Below, piece by piece: positions 2,599 through 55,862 of a stretch of 64,000 bases of DNA; the first letter of the stretch is position 1, and each line of letters begins with the position of its first letter. The notes under the pieces are model-generated. The model saw nothing but the letters and a program-made list of their open reading frames with translations. It was not told the DNA's origin and ran no database searches. The translations under genes and the position numbers were made by a program. Origin of the DNA: a virus; IMG/VR virus record IMGVR_UViG_3300036828_000547, positions 1-64,000 of that record; one strand, 5' to 3'.

Positions 2599-3887
2599 TG
2601 AATATCCACGTTTCCGAACCTAAGACTATTCATCTGCCTCGGTTTCATGATGGACAAGTGGAAGCATTCAATGTTCCTGCCCGGTTCAAGGCTCTGCGAT
2701 GCGGACGACGGTGGGGCAAGACTCAGTTTCTGAAAACGATAGCGTGCGATTTTGCGGCCAAAGGTGCTCAAGTCGGTTGGTTTGTTCCAAACTATCGTTA
2801 TGCATCTGAAGCCTACTCTGAGACTGAATTTACACTGGAACCGGCAGTCAAGTCTAGTTCCAAAAATCTTGGTATCATTCATACAACGACTGGTGGCCGG
2901 ATTGAACTATGGACGTTGGAAGATGAAAAGGCAGGTCGGTCTCGTCGATATCACCTAGCTATCATTGATGAGGCCGCGTTCACTAAAAGAAATACGATTG
3001 ATATTTGGACCAAAGCCATACGGCCGACATTGTTGGATTTTCGTGGTGCTGCGATCATTGCTTCAAATACCAACGGTATCAACGAGGATAATTTTTTCTG
3101 GCGAATTTGTAACTTACCGGAATATGGATTTGTTGAATATCACGCTCCTTCTCATAGCAATCCATTCCTCCCTGCGGATGAGTTAGAACGTCTCGAGCAT
3201 GATAATCACCCGCTCGTGTACGCGCAGGAGTATATGGCGGAGTTTGTTGATTGGTCTGGTGAAGCATTTTTCTCATTAAATAATTTGCTGACCGAAGGTA
3301 AGCCAGAGCCATTTCCATCTCGTTGTTTATATGTCTTTGCGACCTTGGATACTGCTGTAAAAACAGGAAAAGAAAACGATGGCACAGGCGTCATCTATTG
3401 GGCCTATGAGCAATTGGGGGATGAGAAATGGCTTAAAATCATTGACTATGAATACTTACAAATTGAAGGTTCCGTGCTCGAGCTCTGGTTGCCCGTTGTT
3501 TATCGAAATTTGGACGAGTATGCCACTGCCTGTGGAGCTCGTTTGGGTAGCAAGGGATGTCTTATCGAAGATAAAGCATCAGGATCTATACTTATCCAAC
3601 AAGCTCGAAGACGAAATTTACCCGTTGGTGAACTACCCCAGAAACTGACGCAGTTAGGGAAATCAGAACGTGCGATCAACGTCAGTGGGTACGTGTTTCG
3701 TGGTCAGGTTAGAATTCTTGAAACTGCCTACAACCGCATCATAACTTACAAGCAAGTCTCAAAGAATCATTTGCTTGGACAGGTTCTAGGTTTCCGTGTT
3801 GGTGATGTCGAAGATCGGCCAGACGACCTGCTAGACTGTTTCACATACGGAGTTGCTATCTCACTCGGTAACTTTGAAGGGTACTAA
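2598..3887 (+). CDS. terL: terminase large subunit
   Basis: Walker A CGRRWGKT, Walker B IIDEAAF, QEYMAEF, nuclease motifs LDTA/IEDKASG/DDLLD. Confidence 0.95.
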   Translation: MNIHVSEPKTIHLPRFHDGQVEAFNVPARFKALRCGRRWGKTQFLKTIACDFAAKGAQVGWFVPNYRYASEAYSETEFTLEPAVKSSSKNLGIIHTTTGGRIELWTLEDEKAGRSRRYHLAIIDEAAFTKRNTIDIWTKAIRPTLLDFRGAAIIASNTNGINEDNFFWRICNLPEYGFVEYHAPSHSNPFLPADELERLEHDNHPLVYAQEYMAEFVDWSGEAFFSLNNLLTEGKPEPFPSRCLYVFATLDTAVKTGKENDGTGVIYWAYEQLGDEKWLKIIDYEYLQIEGSVLELWLPVVYRNLDEYATACGARLGSKGCLIEDKASGSILIQQARRRNLPVGELPQKLTQLGKSERAINVSGYVFRGQVRILETAYNRIITYKQVSKNHLLGQVLGFRVGDVEDRPDDLLDCFTYGVAISLGNFEGY

Positions 3888-3908
3888 CTCATCATTGGAG
3901 TAAAGCCC

Positions 3909-4115
3909 ATGATGACAGGTGACAGAGTCAAGTTAAATGGCGTCACGGCCAAGACGATGAGTAAATTGAGCCGAGGTTCACACAAGGTTGATTGGTGTAA
4001 ACGTCGTGGCACCATAGCCGAAGTCAGAAAAAATGGGACTTGTGGCATTCGTTGGGATGGTCGAAGTTCACTAGATTACTACGCGCCTCGGGCATTGGTA
4101 AAAGGTGATAAATGA
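3909..4115 (+). CDS. hypothetical basic protein (SH3/KOW-like pattern)
   Basis: GDRVKL...RGTIAEV...GIRWDG; GGAG RBS. Confidence 0.6.
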   Translation: MMTGDRVKLNGVTAKTMSKLSRGSHKVDWCKRRGTIAEVRKNGTCGIRWDGRSSLDYYAPRALVKGDK

Positions 4116-38551: not shown

Positions 38552-38568
38552 AAAGCTATTTTCAGCCC

Positions 38569-38649
38569 CTACGGTGCCCCGTGGTGCGTTATTTCTGGGT
38601 GCCCGCTAGGGTAGTAACCCCCCTTGGTTCCGCCTACCAGTGGCCTTTA
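38569..38649. repeat. dispersed spaced-motif element, copy A (copy B at 45167-45249)
   Basis: shared blocks CCCGTGG, TGCGTT-13-CGCTA, CCAGYGGCCTTTA. Confidence 0.55.
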
Positions 38650-38708
38650 AAACGCGTGAACTTATTGTCCAGCAAAAACAAGGGGTTAGCCCCTCTTTAA
38701 TCTTCCCA

Positions 38709-41241: not shown

Positions 41242-41277
41242 GTAAAGTATTTTAGCACGCCGGTATAATGAATGCAA
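41242..41277 (-). promoter_or_regulatory. sigma70-type promoter followed by ACTTTAC box
   Basis: TTGCAT-17-TAAAAT then ACTTTAC. Confidence 0.7.
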
Positions 41278-43133: not shown

Positions 43134-45134
43134 TTATTTCTTTAAGTCACCCCATGATTTACCGATCTTAATGTCTGTTAACATTGGGATAGTAATAGAT
43201 GGCACTGCTTTCTCCATTATCTCTGCACAGAGCTTGGCATGAGCTTGGTTACTGAAACTAAAGCATAATTCATCATGAACTTGCAACAGTGGTGTGAATC
43301 CTGCGTTATGAACATTAACCATCGCTTTCTTAATTTGTCGTGCAGCATCCCCTTGTATTTTTCGATTGAATGATTTGTGTGTGAATGAGCGTCTAAGCGC
43401 ACTGTTATGCCACGGATGTTCTGGATCATTAACTCGTTGTAGAGCTTCTTCATGTGAGCATGAAAATGTATCAATCTGCTTATTTGGGTATCTCTCTTGA
43501 TACCAACTGATATCAAAATTACGATATTCTGCTGGTTCCCACAAATTAAAATGACTTCGTGCTCCATCTATTAATTCAATATACCCTTGTCGTTTTGCCA
43601 TCCATGTATACTCATTATAGGCTTGACGAACAAATGGTAGTCTTTCATCATACTGTTTTAATGTAGATTCAGCCTCAGTTTCATCCATACCAGTCATCAA
43701 GGCAAACTTTCCAACACCGGCTCCATAACTGACTGCGAAGTTAACATCCTTGGCTCGTCTGCGCTCTAGACGAGTTATGGATGCTACATAATCATGAAAA
43801 TCAGTATTAGGATCATTGCGATACATATCCGCAGCTTGTTTCGCACCCCTCGCCCGTAACTTTTCAGCGACATAAACGATAAGCCGATATTCCTGTTGCC
43901 GGTAGTCAATGCTGCACCATTCCTCACCATCCTCAGGTTCAAAGCAAGATCGTATGAGCGGAGCCCACTCTTCATCCCGGCTAGGCATTTGTTGAAGTGG
44001 TGGATCAGAATAACTAAAGCGATGACTTCTTGCGCCACCACTTTCACTTCTAAATTGATTAACTGTTGGATAAACACGACCTTTATGGGCATATTCACAA
44101 ATATAGCCTAACAGAAACTTTTCTGCCAGTTCTGTATCATGTTTAATCTTGTGTATAAGCCGAGGAAATTCTTCCTTATAGCTTTCCATCACTTCCTTAC
44201 TGAAACTCGGATTGCCGCGTGCAGTTCGGAAGATTAAAATACCTCTTTTTTGAAACTGTTCAGAGAGCCATTGACTCTTACGTATTTCTTTGATTGTAAC
44301 TTTATTACCTGTTTCCCTACTGAGCTCATTTAGTTTAACTTCACAATTTGCCGATATACTCTTAGCTAATTTCCTAGCTCTATCTGTATTGACTTTCACC
44401 CCACGTTGTTTCATCTTCAGCGTGATAGGAAGTAAATCACGTTCGATTTGATATGCCTCGTCTAAGTATTCTGCTGATAACTGTGGCCGCAGCTTTTGAG
44501 CCAGACCCAATGTGCTCATTGCATCTTGTTCGGAATACGGTCCTACATATCTACCCGGTAAACGCCACAGACCCGCTTTTCCGGTGGCTGAATAAGCCAA
44601 TCCGGCTAAGTTTAATAATGATTCATCTTTACCGGGTAGTCCTTGCCATTGACATAGATTCTCTAGGCTAAATGAAAATTGGTTTTCATCTAGCATGGCG
44701 GCCATTGCTCCCGTGTCATCTAATAATTTGGGTGGCTCCAAACCAAAGGTGGCTTGAATCCATCCCCAATCGTATTGAAAATGATGGAATATAAATCGTG
44801 TTTGATTTTGTGCTCTAAGACACTTGAGCCAATCATAAACCTTATTATGATCAAAGCATTTTGTTTCTGGATGGCGTAAAGGGATATAGATTGATTGATC
44901 TCGCCATGCAGCAGATATTCCACAAATGTAACCAGTTCTTAAATTAGTTCGTTCATATTGGTGAAATCCAGGACCTAGGTCTTTGGCTAAAAGATCGTCA
45001 CGAGTCTCTGTATCAATGGCTACCTCAGTTTCCCGGCTAAGGTCAGGAAGCTGTTCTGGAGATTGCCAGTCACTATCAGGTGTAAATAAGGGAAGTTGAT
45101 CTGGTGAGGGTTTTCCCTTGCTTATTTTTGCCAT
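43134..45134 (-). CDS. DNA polymerase, family A, with 3'-5' exonuclease
   Basis: AIDTET; motif A DYRQQEYR; motif B RRAKDVNFAVSYG; motif C QVHDEL. Confidence 0.95.
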   Translation of the reverse strand: MAKISKGKPSPDQLPLFTPDSDWQSPEQLPDLSRETEVAIDTETRDDLLAKDLGPGFHQYERTNLRTGYICGISAAWRDQSIYIPLRHPETKCFDHNKVYDWLKCLRAQNQTRFIFHHFQYDWGWIQATFGLEPPKLLDDTGAMAAMLDENQFSFSLENLCQWQGLPGKDESLLNLAGLAYSATGKAGLWRLPGRYVGPYSEQDAMSTLGLAQKLRPQLSAEYLDEAYQIERDLLPITLKMKQRGVKVNTDRARKLAKSISANCEVKLNELSRETGNKVTIKEIRKSQWLSEQFQKRGILIFRTARGNPSFSKEVMESYKEEFPRLIHKIKHDTELAEKFLLGYICEYAHKGRVYPTVNQFRSESGGARSHRFSYSDPPLQQMPSRDEEWAPLIRSCFEPEDGEEWCSIDYRQQEYRLIVYVAEKLRARGAKQAADMYRNDPNTDFHDYVASITRLERRRAKDVNFAVSYGAGVGKFALMTGMDETEAESTLKQYDERLPFVRQAYNEYTWMAKRQGYIELIDGARSHFNLWEPAEYRNFDISWYQERYPNKQIDTFSCSHEEALQRVNDPEHPWHNSALRRSFTHKSFNRKIQGDAARQIKKAMVNVHNAGFTPLLQVHDELCFSFSNQAHAKLCAEIMEKAVPSITIPMLTDIKIGKSWGDLKK

Positions 45135-45166
45135 GTACCACCCCTATTAAGATGCCTCTAGGAAGG

Positions 45167-45249
45167 CTAGCGTGGCCCGTGGGTGCGTTTTGAACCGGGG
45201 TGCGCTACCATGCCCTAGCTAGGTGCGACAGGCCATCCAGCGGCCTTTA
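45167..45249. repeat. dispersed spaced-motif element, copy B (in the polymerase 5' leader)
   Basis: shares blocks and spacing with copy A. Confidence 0.55.
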
Positions 45250-45256
45250 TTTGGCT

Positions 45257-45285
45257 ATCGTAAAGCATTTTTCCATGAATTGCAA
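45257..45285 (-). promoter_or_regulatory. sigma70-type promoter for DNA polymerase
   Basis: TTGCAA-17-TACGAT; spacer overlaps ATGCTTTAC. Confidence 0.6.
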
Positions 45286-45301: not shown

Positions 45302-45324
45302 TCTGTTACACTGTACACTTACAA
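45302..45324. repeat. 23-bp inverted repeat, left arm
   Basis: TCTGTTACACTGTACACTTACAA is the exact reverse complement of 46431-46453. Confidence 0.95.
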
Positions 45325-45338
45325 GCCCGTTGCAGCTT

Positions 45339-46412
45339 TTATTGTTCCTTGTCTTTCTTATCTTTTGTCACCACCTTTAGCGAGGGCTTTGATGGTTTTA
45401 GATATCTACGCCACATCTCTTCGAAGTCTGCACGGATATAGCATCGTTCTAGCCGCCTATATTCAGACCAACGTGTAGGTTTATTTTTGATTTGAAAATC
45501 ACTAAGTATATGAGCTAGTATGGTCAATGTTAAGCGTGACCATTCGCCTAGACCATTATCTAACTTAAATAGTCTGGCTAGAAGTGTATGACTGGGCAGC
45601 ACTTCAGCTTGTGCTTCATCAAACACTATACGCACATCATGCAGCAATTCTAATTTTCTATTGGTGGGGGCATCTTCTTTAGCAAATTGAATTGCAGCCT
45701 CACGTGCTATATCCCCACGGCCTAATGCATTTGCAATAGATATCAGTACGCGCCAGTTTTCTGCCCCACGACCCTTTGTGACTATTGGCGGCATAGTGGG
45801 GTCTAGATTCAAGTTAACTAGTTTGCTCTTAACCTGTTCGGCCCACTGTTCGATTTTTATTCCTATATTAGCTAATTCTTCAGCATAAGTGATACTGCTG
45901 AATCTCATTTTTGAATAGGAACGGTGCATACGGATAATAACTGAACGTGATAAAAGTGGGCCGGGTAAAGAGCCTATTCCTGCAAGAGCAACAGGGCCAA
46001 AAACCGGAAATAAAATCATTTCCCCATCTATCTTGCGTGGTACAACTCCATCCCTTCCATGGCCCGCGTTTAAAATACCTCTCAGGTCTTTATCCATACG
46101 CACATTATCGACTTCATCAATAAGTAATGTATGGCTCTGTGAGAAATGGTATATGGTTGACCTTGGATCTATAAGTAGTTTTGGCTTCCAAGCCATCCCT
46201 AGAAGAATTTTTAGGGCTGTGCTTTTTCCAGTCTCTTCTACCGGGCTAAGAATTGCAAGTCTAGGAGACACATCAAATTTATTATAGATGTGTGTGTGGA
46301 AAGGCCATAGCGCCATTCCAATTAGTTGATGAGGTTTTGCATCAACATGTCGTTCAAGAAAACTATGAACAAGACCAAAGATATCCTCTTCTTTTTTGAC
46401 CTTCCTTTTCAT
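45339..46412 (-). CDS. DUF3631-type AAA+ ATPase (putative replication helicase/initiator, no primase domain)
   Basis: SPRLAILSP..TGKS, LLIDEVD, GILNAGH, ALAGIG.LP..L.SRS, WRVLISIA. Confidence 0.75.
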   Translation of the reverse strand: MKRKVKKEEDIFGLVHSFLERHVDAKPHQLIGMALWPFHTHIYNKFDVSPRLAILSPVEETGKSTALKILLGMAWKPKLLIDPRSTIYHFSQSHTLLIDEVDNVRMDKDLRGILNAGHGRDGVVPRKIDGEMILFPVFGPVALAGIGSLPGPLLSRSVIIRMHRSYSKMRFSSITYAEELANIGIKIEQWAEQVKSKLVNLNLDPTMPPIVTKGRGAENWRVLISIANALGRGDIAREAAIQFAKEDAPTNRKLELLHDVRIVFDEAQAEVLPSHTLLARLFKLDNGLGEWSRLTLTILAHILSDFQIKNKPTRWSEYRRLERCYIRADFEEMWRRYLKPSKPSLKVVTKDKKDKEQ

Positions 46413-46430
46413 AAGTAACCCCTAACGGTG

Positions 46431-46453
46431 TTGTAAGTGTACAGTGTAACAGA
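46431..46453. repeat. 23-bp inverted repeat, right arm
   Basis: TTGTAAGTGTACAGTGTAACAGA. Confidence 0.95.
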
Positions 46454-46469
46454 CCTCCTCATGGTTGCC

Positions 46470-46514
46470 TGTAAAGCATTTTACCATACCCAAACAGGAG
46501 GTACAAGTTTGATT
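46470..46514 (-). promoter_or_regulatory. sigma70-type promoter with upstream AATCAAAC and downstream GCTTTACA
   Basis: AATCAAAC-TTGTAC-17-TAAAAT-GCTTTACA. Confidence 0.7.
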
Positions 46515-46515
46515 A

Positions 46516-47313
46516 TTAGTTTTCCTGTTTGCGGAATGGAGTTTCCACGTCGCACATAGGCGCATCAACCTGACTAAGTCTCTTGTGACCTAGCATCCTT
46601 TCTGCCAATATCTGACCCCACTTTTTTATCCCTTTAAATTCAATTGCCAGTCGTTGTTTGGCAACTTCATCCATTTGGTCTACGTACAGTGACAATTGGA
46701 ACAACTCGTGACAATGTTGATTTACTTCTCTTATATGTTCATAAAACCTTTGCTTGGCGTTATCTGGCATCCGTCCAATCGGAACATCATCCTCTACAAC
46801 AATCCAAGCTTTATACCCTTCTTTTTCATTCAATTGTTGAAGCATTTCTCTTTCAGCCAATTGATGTTTGCTTAGAACCGGGGGTTGTGGTATAGTGGGT
46901 CCAGGAAAAGTTTTTTCAGCTATTTCCACAGCATGTTTACGCGGCCCGCGTAAACATACATCTTGGTTACGTGGAATTGGTTGTTCACGTAACCCAGATT
47001 CTACCAAAAAAGGGATTGTTTCTTCTCGCCAAATGTGTTGCCAAGAAGCAAGGTGAGTACGTATTAACACCTCTTTAGCTTTTTCCCTATACTTAGGATT
47101 TCCCATATTAATAAGGGAACTTCGATCTTGATGACTTATTACAGTTTTACCATATCCTTGTTCTGTTAGCCATTGCCCAAAAGATTTATCGGCACTGTGA
47201 CCTTGACCAAGGTTCTCACGTGCTTCCCACAGAGTTACCGCAAGCTCCATAGTTCCATCAACCCAATCAACTGTGACTTTTTTCCAGGCTTGGTCTAAAC
47301 GTTCCTTATACAT
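46516..47313 (-). CDS. hypothetical protein, DUF3102-like N-terminus
   Basis: AGGAG RBS at ATG 47313; LWEARE....FGQWL motif. Confidence 0.65.
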   Translation of the reverse strand: MYKERLDQAWKKVTVDWVDGTMELAVTLWEARENLGQGHSADKSFGQWLTEQGYGKTVISHQDRSSLINMGNPKYREKAKEVLIRTHLASWQHIWREETIPFLVESGLREQPIPRNQDVCLRGPRKHAVEIAEKTFPGPTIPQPPVLSKHQLAEREMLQQLNEKEGYKAWIVVEDDVPIGRMPDNAKQRFYEHIREVNQHCHELFQLSLYVDQMDEVAKQRLAIEFKGIKKWGQILAERMLGHKRLSQVDAPMCDVETPFRKQEN

Positions 47314-47331
47314 CTGTATTCTCCTAAAGAA

Positions 47332-47382
47332 AAGGCCGCACATAATAATACCATGTGCGGCCTTAGATTAGCAAATTTGATT
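47332..47382 (-). promoter_or_regulatory. promoter embedded in a terminator-like inverted repeat
   Basis: TTGCTA-18-TATTAT; the -10 lies in the loop of a 12-bp IR followed by TTCTTT. Confidence 0.6.
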
Positions 47383-47995
47383 ATGCTGTTTTTCTGTAAT
47401 AACCTTCCACAGCCCATCGTGACTTTGGTAGCCCATTCTGAGCAGCTTTTTGTCCCGGGACACTGATTGGTTTCACAATCGGTTTGGTTTCTACTACTTC
47501 CTTATTATTATTTTCAGCTTTTGGAGCTTCCTTAATATCATTCTCAGCTTTTGAAAGAATCTGACTTACTAAAGTAGCTTTAGGAGGTCCAGGCCTAAAC
47601 TTTTCTACTCGTCTCGATGACTTACGTTGCCGATTCTTCTGTTTACCTGAACGAAAGTGAATGGAAATTACTGTGGGGTGAACATCGCTCCTATTTATGT
47701 CGAACATATTTGCTAAGTCCCATGCTTCTTCTGACATGTAGAACTCAAGTTCCCATTTTTCATCACCAAAGTCTATCCATACATAGATATGATTGCCAGC
47801 TACTTCAGCTCTATAACAAGACTCAATGGCAGAATGAAGTGCCCGAACAAAGGCACAATTCCGCTTATCTCCAGGAATAGCATCGTCTATATTTTCTTGG
47901 GAAACATAGATTGTAATGCGTCTTCCTGGAGTTAGACCTAGCAAATCTTTTGCTGTATAACGAACAAAAGACGTAGCTGTATCTAGGCTTGACAT
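47381..47995 (-). CDS. hypothetical protein
   Basis: AAGGAGG RBS; IDDAIPGDKRNCAFVRAL motif. Confidence 0.7.
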   Translation of the reverse strand: MSSLDTATSFVRYTAKDLLGLTPGRRITIYVSQENIDDAIPGDKRNCAFVRALHSAIESCYRAEVAGNHIYVWIDFGDEKWELEFYMSEEAWDLANMFDINRSDVHPTVISIHFRSGKQKNRQRKSSRRVEKFRPGPPKATLVSQILSKAENDIKEAPKAENNNKEVVETKPIVKPISVPGQKAAQNGLPKSRWAVEGYYRKTA

Positions 47996-48098
47996 GTTAT
48001 CCTCCTTAATCTTAGTGTTCCCGTACGAGGTCTAACCCTAAGGTACGTACACTAAAATTAAGTAGCACACCTTAATATGAGAGCACAAGTTTGATTGT

Positions 48099-55816: not shown

Positions 55817-55862
55817 TGTAAAGCATTATACCCCCAAAACCCATGAATTACAAGGGGTTAGC
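55817..55862 (-). promoter_or_regulatory. sigma70-type promoter followed by GCTTTACA
   Basis: TTGTAA-17-TATAAT-GCTTTACA. Confidence 0.75.

Follow-up and report, generated by a model that had tools for sequence, protein, structure and literature searches.

The locus raises the question of why one phage gene should be bracketed by two long inverted repeats. The window, which is the whole stretch of 64,000 nucleotides that was analysed, was reported in the first-pass annotation to carry perfect 23-bp inverted repeats around exactly one gene, a DUF3631 ATPase. Three explanations were offered there: a bipartite origin with opposed iterons bound by the enclosed ATPase, which could also repress its own gene; an invertible on/off switch; or a small mobile replicon cassette. 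The enclosed gene, its two arms and the neighbouring polymerase gene are as follows.

45339..46412, minus strand: RepAM-type (DUF3631) initiator/helicase gene, 357 aa, with a Pfam DUF3631 match
46424..46453, minus strand: predicted upstream (5') iteron array, in the putative leader at about +17 to +46
45302..45331, minus strand: predicted downstream (3') iteron array, an inverted copy, 23/23 in the core and 28/30 overall
43134..45134, minus strand: family A DNA polymerase with a 3'-5' exonuclease domain, the downstream neighbour and the synteny anchor to relatives

The bracketing of a single gene by perfect 23-bp repeats was confirmed. Each arm is 30 nt long (45302-45331 and 46424-46453), 28 of the 30 positions (93%) are complementary, and the 23-nt perfect core of both arms is TCTGTTACACTGTACACTTACAA. 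The only sizeable open reading frame between the arms is that of the 357-aa protein. Two matches with three or fewer mismatches were observed in the window, as against none when the window was shuffled 100 times. The complete virus record of 78,660 bp contains only this pair of arm copies. Reading the arm as TTGTAAGTGTACAGTGTAACAGA recovers the three TGTA units that had been described in each arm, with spacings of 6 and 7 nt. On the coding strand, the 5' array reads TCTGTTACACTGTACACTTACAACACCGTT and consists of the units TGTTACAC, TGTACAC and TTACAAC, and the Shine-Dalgarno sequence AGGGG (46419-46423) directly adjoins its inner end. The 3' array also consists of three units. It begins 8 nt past the initiator stop codon (7 nt lie between) and is located about 42-71 nt upstream of the -10 box of the putative polymerase promoter. 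The AT content beside the arms is 0.53-0.70, and a distinct AT-rich unwinding element is found at neither arm. Neither CTTGAT nor ATCAAG occurs near either arm, local hairpins at the arms are limited to weak folds of -5 to -8 kcal/mol, and the GC skew of the window tracks gene orientation with nothing marking the arms.

By its Pfam score, the enclosed protein is a member of the RepAM family. It matches DUF3631 (PF12307) with an E value of 5.9e-21 and 75.9 bits, which is above the cut-off of 24 (77.8 bits in the genome scan). PF12307/DUF3631 is listed as RepAM, the replication initiator protein of pMEA300 (Bordeleau et al., PMC3218068). In purified form, RepAM binds to several identical 8-bp repeats within the 3' end of the gene that encodes it, a region regarded as the putative ori (PMC2440964). 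The protein in the window possesses a Walker A motif GKS (G62, K63 and S64), a Walker B motif DEVD (D99, E100 and D102) and an LLSRS motif in which R156 sits. Residues G62, K63, D99, E100, D102 and R156 are invariant across 70 homologues, and the closest homologues (P0002 and P0003) are 62-64% identical. The LLSRS motif resembles the LLSRFD motif of MCM, and we take R156 to be a candidate arginine finger in an SRF-like motif.

An AlphaFold2 model of the initiator was built from the 70 homologues, with a mean pLDDT of 92. Residues 3-248 of the model align to the MCM AAA+ core in both Foldseek and VIA-align. The best MCM alignment is to 3f8t (Z 17.4, rmsd 3.5 A, 217 residues), dozens of MCM chains, many of them MCM2-7, are matched at Z 15-17, and some of the alignments extend to residue ~330 and cover the MCM C-terminal region. 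The identity to MCM sequences is 12-17%. The helicase domain of phage NrS-1 was also matched by Foldseek. The C-terminal third of the model has a strand-helix-helix-strand-strand order, and this topology suggests a winged-helix-like domain. The predicted fold of the initiator is an MCM-type AAA+ core with a C-terminal winged-helix-like domain. The N-terminal OB-fold/zinc domain is absent from the model: residues 3-248 already align with the AAA+ portion of MCM chains, and only two helices come before the P-loop strand. Neither a profile search against PDB sequences nor a search of PHROGs with the initiator gave a match.

The genes from ~38.9 to 56 kb are all located on the minus strand and form the replication and nucleotide-modification arm of the genome. 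Besides the polymerase, this region encodes an SNF2-like helicase, an RNase T-type exonuclease, an HD hydrolase, a thymidylate-synthase homologue, a TET-associated glycosyltransferase, a 5-hmdU DNA kinase helical-domain protein, a UvrD-like helicase, Pam3 gp34-like and gp33-like proteins, and two proteins that are encoded upstream of the initiator.

46516-47343, minus strand: g275 (275 aa), just upstream of the initiator gene
47381-47995, minus strand: g204 (204 aa), upstream of the initiator gene

Neither g275 nor g204 has a match in Pfam or PHROGs, g275 matches only uncharacterised viral clusters in the protein atlas, and both genes are absent from the related contig L005. The whole genome gave no match to DnaB_C, Toprim_2 or Prim-Pol, so the DUF3631 protein is the only recognisable hexameric-helicase-type ATPase of this genome.

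On the coding strand, the order of elements around the arms is putative promoter, 5' arm, AGGGG, ATG, gene, stop codon, 7 nt and 3' arm. A second copy of the promoter motif is found 25 nt beyond the 3' arm, and it is followed by a leader of ~120 nt and the polymerase gene.

46471..46506, minus strand: putative initiator promoter, outside the arm, with a -35 box, a 17-nt spacer, an extended -10 box and GCTTTAC
45260..45276, minus strand: second promoter-motif copy ATGGAAAAATGCTTTAC, direct repeat D2, before the DNA polymerase leader
2303-2319, 41242-41258, 45260-45276, 46471-46487 and 55818-55834, minus strand: copies of TAnAATGCTTTAC, a -10 box with a conserved discriminator/start region

The initiator promoter consists of the -35 box TTGTAC (46501-46506), the spacer and the extended -10 box TGgTAAAAT (46478-46486). 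The conserved GCTTTAC follows the extended -10 box, and a further 17 nt separate it from the 5' arm. The motif TAnAATGCTTTAC has five minus-strand occurrences in the window as compared with 0.53 expected. It is also found upstream of the homologous gene in L005, and similar motifs occur in L005 and L008. The copies of TAnAATGCTTTAC are taken here as putative phage promoters, in which case the direct repeat outside the arms (D2) would simply be two promoters. The earlier placement of the initiator promoter at 46478-46506, outside the right arm, is plausible, though a simple sigma-70 promoter scan called neither of the two putative promoters.

The polymerase leader (45135-45262, minus strand) is a conserved G+C-rich element of ~120 nt with a partial second copy near 38560-38660 on the same strand. 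It is present in all relatives, with or without the initiator module, contains invariant blocks (GTAGC and CGCA among them) and matches no Rfam family. It may control the polymerase, either as an RNA element or by binding a protein. It forms the fixed downstream border of a variable interval.

The position of the promoter outside the arms and of the gene inside them is the layout expected of an invertible switch, in which the gene would be turned around with respect to the outside promoter through site-specific recombination at the arms, and arms of 23-30 bp fit the typical size of an invertase site. We nevertheless consider this explanation very improbable. No match to Resolvase (PF00239), Phage_integrase (PF00589) or rve was found in the whole genome, in a search that covered rve among the transposase families, and neither a serine nor a tyrosine recombinase was found. 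The arms are also not internally dyad-symmetric crossover sites. Inversion was looked for in one public run that is probably the source sample, and as the run was available as contigs only, in which rare forms are invisible, the test is a weak one: both arms are covered by a single contig, which has the reference orientation, and the search reported no joints. Another contig, of 250 nt, matches the right arm and the promoter (46432-46486, with three differences) before it diverges to a different gene start, which points to a co-occurring relative with a similar array and not to an inverted junction. Among the related loci with arms, the orientation of the gene relative to the upstream arm is the same in every case, and the gene faces a recognisable promoter in the three loci where a promoter is seen. 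The proposal of an invertible switch is thus not upheld.

The arms were also searched for around homologues of the initiator. A blastn search against the phage collection and a single-protein scan of viral contigs gave no match. An alignment-based scan for initiator homologues identified 17 viral and 47 metagenome loci, and each locus was scored by the best ungapped inverted repeat between its upstream and downstream flanks. The scores of 150 non-cognate flank pairs served as the null (mean 8.1, 95th percentile 10, maximum 14). The cognate arm scores are as follows.

Window: 24
L009: 26
L005: 23
L023 and L024: 23
L013: 21
L010 and L011: 19
L028: 18
L030: 18
L014 and L017: 16
L027: 15

Several of the scored loci duplicate one sequence, so they represent ~10 independent phage lineages with opposed arms, and the initiators of these lineages are 30-55% identical. 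The arm scores of more distant GC-rich loci are not above the null. Two of the arm-bearing relatives (L003/L009 and L005) share the wider arrangement of the window, with a DUF3631 gene (~54% identical) that is located directly upstream of the polymerase gene and bracketed by inverted repeats. Their arm is TGTAACAGATGTAACACTTGCAACGC, which is unlike that of the window and which matches its inverted copy at 26/26 positions in L003 and at 25/26 in L005. In L015, three units are found 270 nt upstream of the gene and three inverted units right after its stop codon.

The arm sequence varies from phage to phage, yet the two arms match each other within each phage. Each arm in the relatives consists of two or three tandem units of 8-9 nt with the core GTNAC, or GGGTTGC in one clade. 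The units of the window, which are 6-7 nt apart, are less regular. Examples of the units are TGTAACAGA-TGTAACACT-TGCAACGC, TGTAACGA-TGTTACGA-TGTTAC, three copies of GTAACTAG, TGTAACTTA-GTAACTTAG and CGTAATGT-TGTAATGCA-GTAATGC. Three copies of GGGTTGCG accompany an initiator that is only 30% identical to that of the window. Over ten arm pairs, 9 of 230 positions are mismatched, and eight of these nine lie outside the 5-nt cores. The cores make up ~60% of the arm positions, and a rough, post hoc binomial estimate gives p ~0.004 for the avoidance of cores. If the arms are read as RNA, the mismatches are one G.U, three U.U, two C.A, and one each of U.C, C.C and A.G. Selection appears to act on the cores and not on the pairing, since the mismatches avoid the cores and only one of them is G.U.

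When viral contigs were scanned for the window-type arm, four more stretches were found, which represent two distinct sequences, each found twice. Each stretch has a single copy of the arm, no RepAM gene was found with it, and the number is close to our estimate of chance. The only inverted pair of the window-type arm in the viral contigs is that of the contig of L013 itself.

Side features of the arrays were observed in two clades. In L005 (2550-2575), the 3' array is in frame and is translated as SVT/SVA repeats that form a C-terminal tail (...ASVTSVTSVT...). P0005, P0006, P0008 and P0009 belong to the same clade and also have the 3' array within the reading frame, and some gene calls of this clade take the 5' array as an N-terminal extension (VTDATLATP). 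In one other clade, a conserved palindrome, CCTTTTAGGCAAT(A/T)nTGCCA, is located just upstream of the 5' iteron array, and it may be the operator of another regulator.

L010, ~3922-3941: palindromic element
L014, ~3872-3891: palindromic element
L027, ~313-332: palindromic element
L012, ~3895-3914: palindromic element

The arrays are also found in layouts that do not bracket the gene. In L012, both arrays follow the stop codon as TGTAACTTTGTAAC, a spacer of ~105 nt that is AT-rich, and GTTACTAAGTTACA, giving two opposed units on each side. In L053, two inverted units, of which one is imperfect, come after four direct CGAAACAAc units. L045 carries eight TCGGGAAC units, with both orientations represented, within very AT-rich DNA, and nine direct ACGCTCCa units precede the gene in L068. 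At every locus of the GTNAC type, the units read TGTNAC in the first array and GTNACA in the second, so that at any spacing the two arrays are opposed. The spacer between facing arrays is ~30-105 nt in some relatives, where it is AT-rich at least in L012, and 1.1 kb in the window. An AT-rich region lies between or around the arrays in L012 and L045, whereas none stands out in the window. These layouts look as an origin with initiator sites would, and neither cassette ends nor a stem that spans the gene can account for them.

These layouts bear on the explanation that the arms act as RNA, with the leader and the trailer of the initiator mRNA pairing over a long range into a duplex of 28/30 bp. 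Both arms are in the probable transcript, downstream of the promoter, and no minus-strand terminator is found before the polymerase gene. The predicted duplex has a free energy of -65.6 kcal/mol, the inner end of the 5' arm adjoins the Shine-Dalgarno sequence, and the pairing is kept while the sequence changes among phages. Such a stem could be a substrate of RNase III or a translational clamp, and would thereby control the stability or translation of one cistron. We regard the stem as an improbable explanation. Tandem units with a conserved core would be superfluous in a stem, just one of the nine mismatches would be G.U in RNA and the mismatches avoid the cores. Homologues with one-sided arrays, which lie in non-coding AT-rich DNA, or with direct repeats cannot form the stem at all. 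The Rfam search gave only a sub-threshold match to ssnA (16 bits as compared with 37.3). RNA pairing of the arms may still occur as a by-product or an extra layer. That selection is on the recognition of DNA by a protein is argued by the unit structure and the conserved cores, and likewise by the mismatch pattern and the one-sided layouts.

Comparison of gene order shows that the placement of the module varies. Six viral contigs encode a polymerase that is 76-80% identical to that of the window and keep the gene order. The site is not covered in one of them (L004), which begins too near the polymerase gene, so five contigs are informative. The initiator gene is absent from the site in L006, L007 and L008, and also from elsewhere on these partial contigs. 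The polymerases of the relatives without the initiator gene are 76-77% identical to that of the window, and the absence from such close relatives indicates that the module is dispensable or replaceable. In the more distant genome G007 (the phage of L023), the backbone homologues keep their order (UvrD-like helicase 61%, g256 59%, g202 53% and polymerase 58-59% identical), and the RepAM module is located between the homologues of g256 and g202 in the opposite orientation, ~10 kb from the polymerase-proximal site. The module of G007 brings its own promoter-like TGGTATAAT and its GGGTTGCG arms. Since it was relocated together with its arms, the gene and the arms travel as one unit in the mosaic evolution of these phages.

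The interval between the g162b homologue and the polymerase gene is hyperplastic. It was located at 46516-48098 in the window, 1412-1523 in L005, 4690-4990 in L006, 1835-3135 in L008 and 990-1500 in L072. It holds g204, g275 and the RepAM gene in the window, the RepAM gene alone in L005, one Zn-finger ORF (CPCCHG...CNSC) in both L006 and L007, four small ORFs in L008, and a single small Cys-rich ORF in G007.

This portability is the part of the cassette proposal that stands: the gene is missing from close relatives and has another site and orientation in G007. In a transposition version of this idea, the arms would be the terminal inverted repeats of a mobile gene cassette that is moved by a host or helper transposase, or with the enclosed ATPase as part of the machinery. 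The ends of the arms (TGT...ACA) are like those of DDE transposons, and the polymerase-proximal site of G007 is empty of the gene. The other part of the proposal does not stand, and we judge it unlikely that the arms are transposon-like ends. The genome has no rve, resolvase or integrase match, the module is present as a single copy per genome, and no target-site duplication was seen at the arm borders of any locus. The comparison with relatives, which had been suggested as a way to find an empty site, shows that the gene is indeed missing in three of them, but the site is an interval with varied small ORFs and not a clean empty site. Both arrays are located on one side of the gene in L012, L053 and L045 and cannot be the ends of a cassette there, and in the clade of L005 the 3' arm is coding sequence.

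If the arms are sites on DNA, they might be read by a different protein, a phage or host regulator that loops or represses the initiator gene and the polymerase promoter. In favour of this, one arm is situated within the leader and one a short distance before the polymerase promoter, the separate palindrome precedes the 5' array in one clade, and the identity of the C-terminal domain does not track the similarity of the iterons. The arm of L013, for example, differs from that of the window by one base, and its C-terminal domain is only 36% identical. We give this explanation a low probability, given that the arrays accompany the initiator gene at a different site and orientation and in unrelated backbones, and that the precedent in the RepAM family is self-binding (PMC2440964).

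The arms are therefore probably the cognate sites, still putative, of the RepAM-type initiator that they enclose. Their role is best read as a split origin, an autoregulatory operator, or both, as the two may apply together. Of the three original proposals, the opposed iterons of the enclosed ATPase, as predicted sites, are favoured: DUF3631 corresponds to RepAM, and the arrays recur and co-vary. Several observations count against this reading: the less regular unit spacing in the window, the lack of a distinct AT-rich element beside the arms, the missing gene in close relatives, a C-terminal domain whose similarity does not follow that of the iterons, the probable transcription of both arms, and the absence of the local hairpin and CTTGAT motif of pMEA300. 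In the proposed mechanism, each arm would consist of three short recognition units (iterons) in tandem, the two arrays would be opposed, and the protein encoded between them would bind both. On each array, initiator protomers would bind cooperatively to the TGTNAC cores of the units. The facing arrangement would give two oligomers of opposite orientation, as needed for bidirectional helicase loading, and the spacer between the arrays in the phage of the window would be the 1.1-kb initiator gene itself. Occupancy of the 5' array, which is located between the promoter and the ribosome-binding site, should also repress the initiator's own expression. The 3' array, located just upstream of the polymerase promoter, could couple the expression of the polymerase to the level of the initiator. 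The gene and its sites would make up a replicon module complete in itself, which phage recombination would have brought to varied positions on a shared backbone.

A more far-reaching possibility, which we put forward tentatively and consider rather unlikely, is that this is a minimal self-loading MCM-like system. A single protein would read the facing arrays through its winged helix and load two motors head to head, at spacings from ~30 bp to more than 1 kb, in an autoregulated and portable module.

Phages and integrative elements commonly encode RepAM/DUF3631 proteins, of which this search found 665 at E <= 1e-10, and what is known of the family rests on essentially one biochemical study. The family itself and the binding of short repeats at the 3' end of its own gene are already known. 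To the extent that the literature could be searched, four features are undescribed: the occurrence in phages, the MCM-like fold, facing arrays whose spacing is free to vary, and a layout that spans the gene. The MCM-like fold, the facing arrays and the co-varying arms make the family tractable, and together they provide testable predicted origins and operators for uncultured soil phages in which neither a DnaB-type helicase nor a primase is recognisable. Should the split arrangement function as an origin, it would be a simple system for determining the maximal distance between opposed helicase-loading sites.

The closest known system is the RepAM of pMEA300 (te Poele et al. 2006, via PMC2440964; PMC3218068), which belongs to the same Pfam family. 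pMEA300 also has multiple short repeats in both orientations at the 3' end of its own initiator gene, and a regulatory role was suggested for the unusual location of the repeats (PMC2440964). The same source also describes iterons. The inverted 8-bp repeats of pMEA300 are local and form one hairpin with a pC194-like CTTGAT inside the coding sequence, whereas the arrays of the window are 1.1 kb apart, bracket the gene, lack CTTGAT and have units 6-7 nt apart. The element in the window is a lytic-type soil phage without an integrase, and pMEA300 is an actinomycete integrative element.

Theta plasmids and the O protein and ori of phage lambda possess tandem repeats that are bound by the adjacent initiator, with autorepression through sites near the promoter. 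They share with the window tandem short repeats and, in the reading favoured here, an origin in or beside the initiator gene. Their initiators differ in that they are not AAA+ motors and recruit a separate helicase, and their iterons are usually ~17-22 bp long in one cluster beside an AT-rich region.

The alpha protein of satellite phage P4 is a helicase-type initiator with a C-terminal winged-helix origin-binding domain. Its 8-bp iterons (TGTTCACC) are found in two clusters, ori and crr, that are 4.5 kb apart and are both required for replication. The likeness to the window lies in the helicase-type initiator, the winged helix and the two separate iteron clusters, the last two being predicted in the window. 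P4 alpha differs in that it has a primase domain, its motor is of the SF3 type and not MCM-like, and ori and crr do not tightly bracket the gene.

In archaeal and eukaryotic MCM loading, the origins have two inverted loader sites and loading is quasi-symmetric. MCM-like proteins also occur in prophages, for example BcMCM. The AAA+ core of MCM is the closest structural match to the initiator of the window (Z 17), and opposed sites with variable spacing would give two opposite motors. The initiator of the window differs from MCM by its lack of the N-terminal OB/Zn domain and by the low sequence identity (12-17%), no separate loader is evident, and it is presumed to read its sites itself, unlike MCM with its loader. 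If the self-loading system is true, the window would provide a bacterial-virus counterpart of quasi-symmetric MCM loading.
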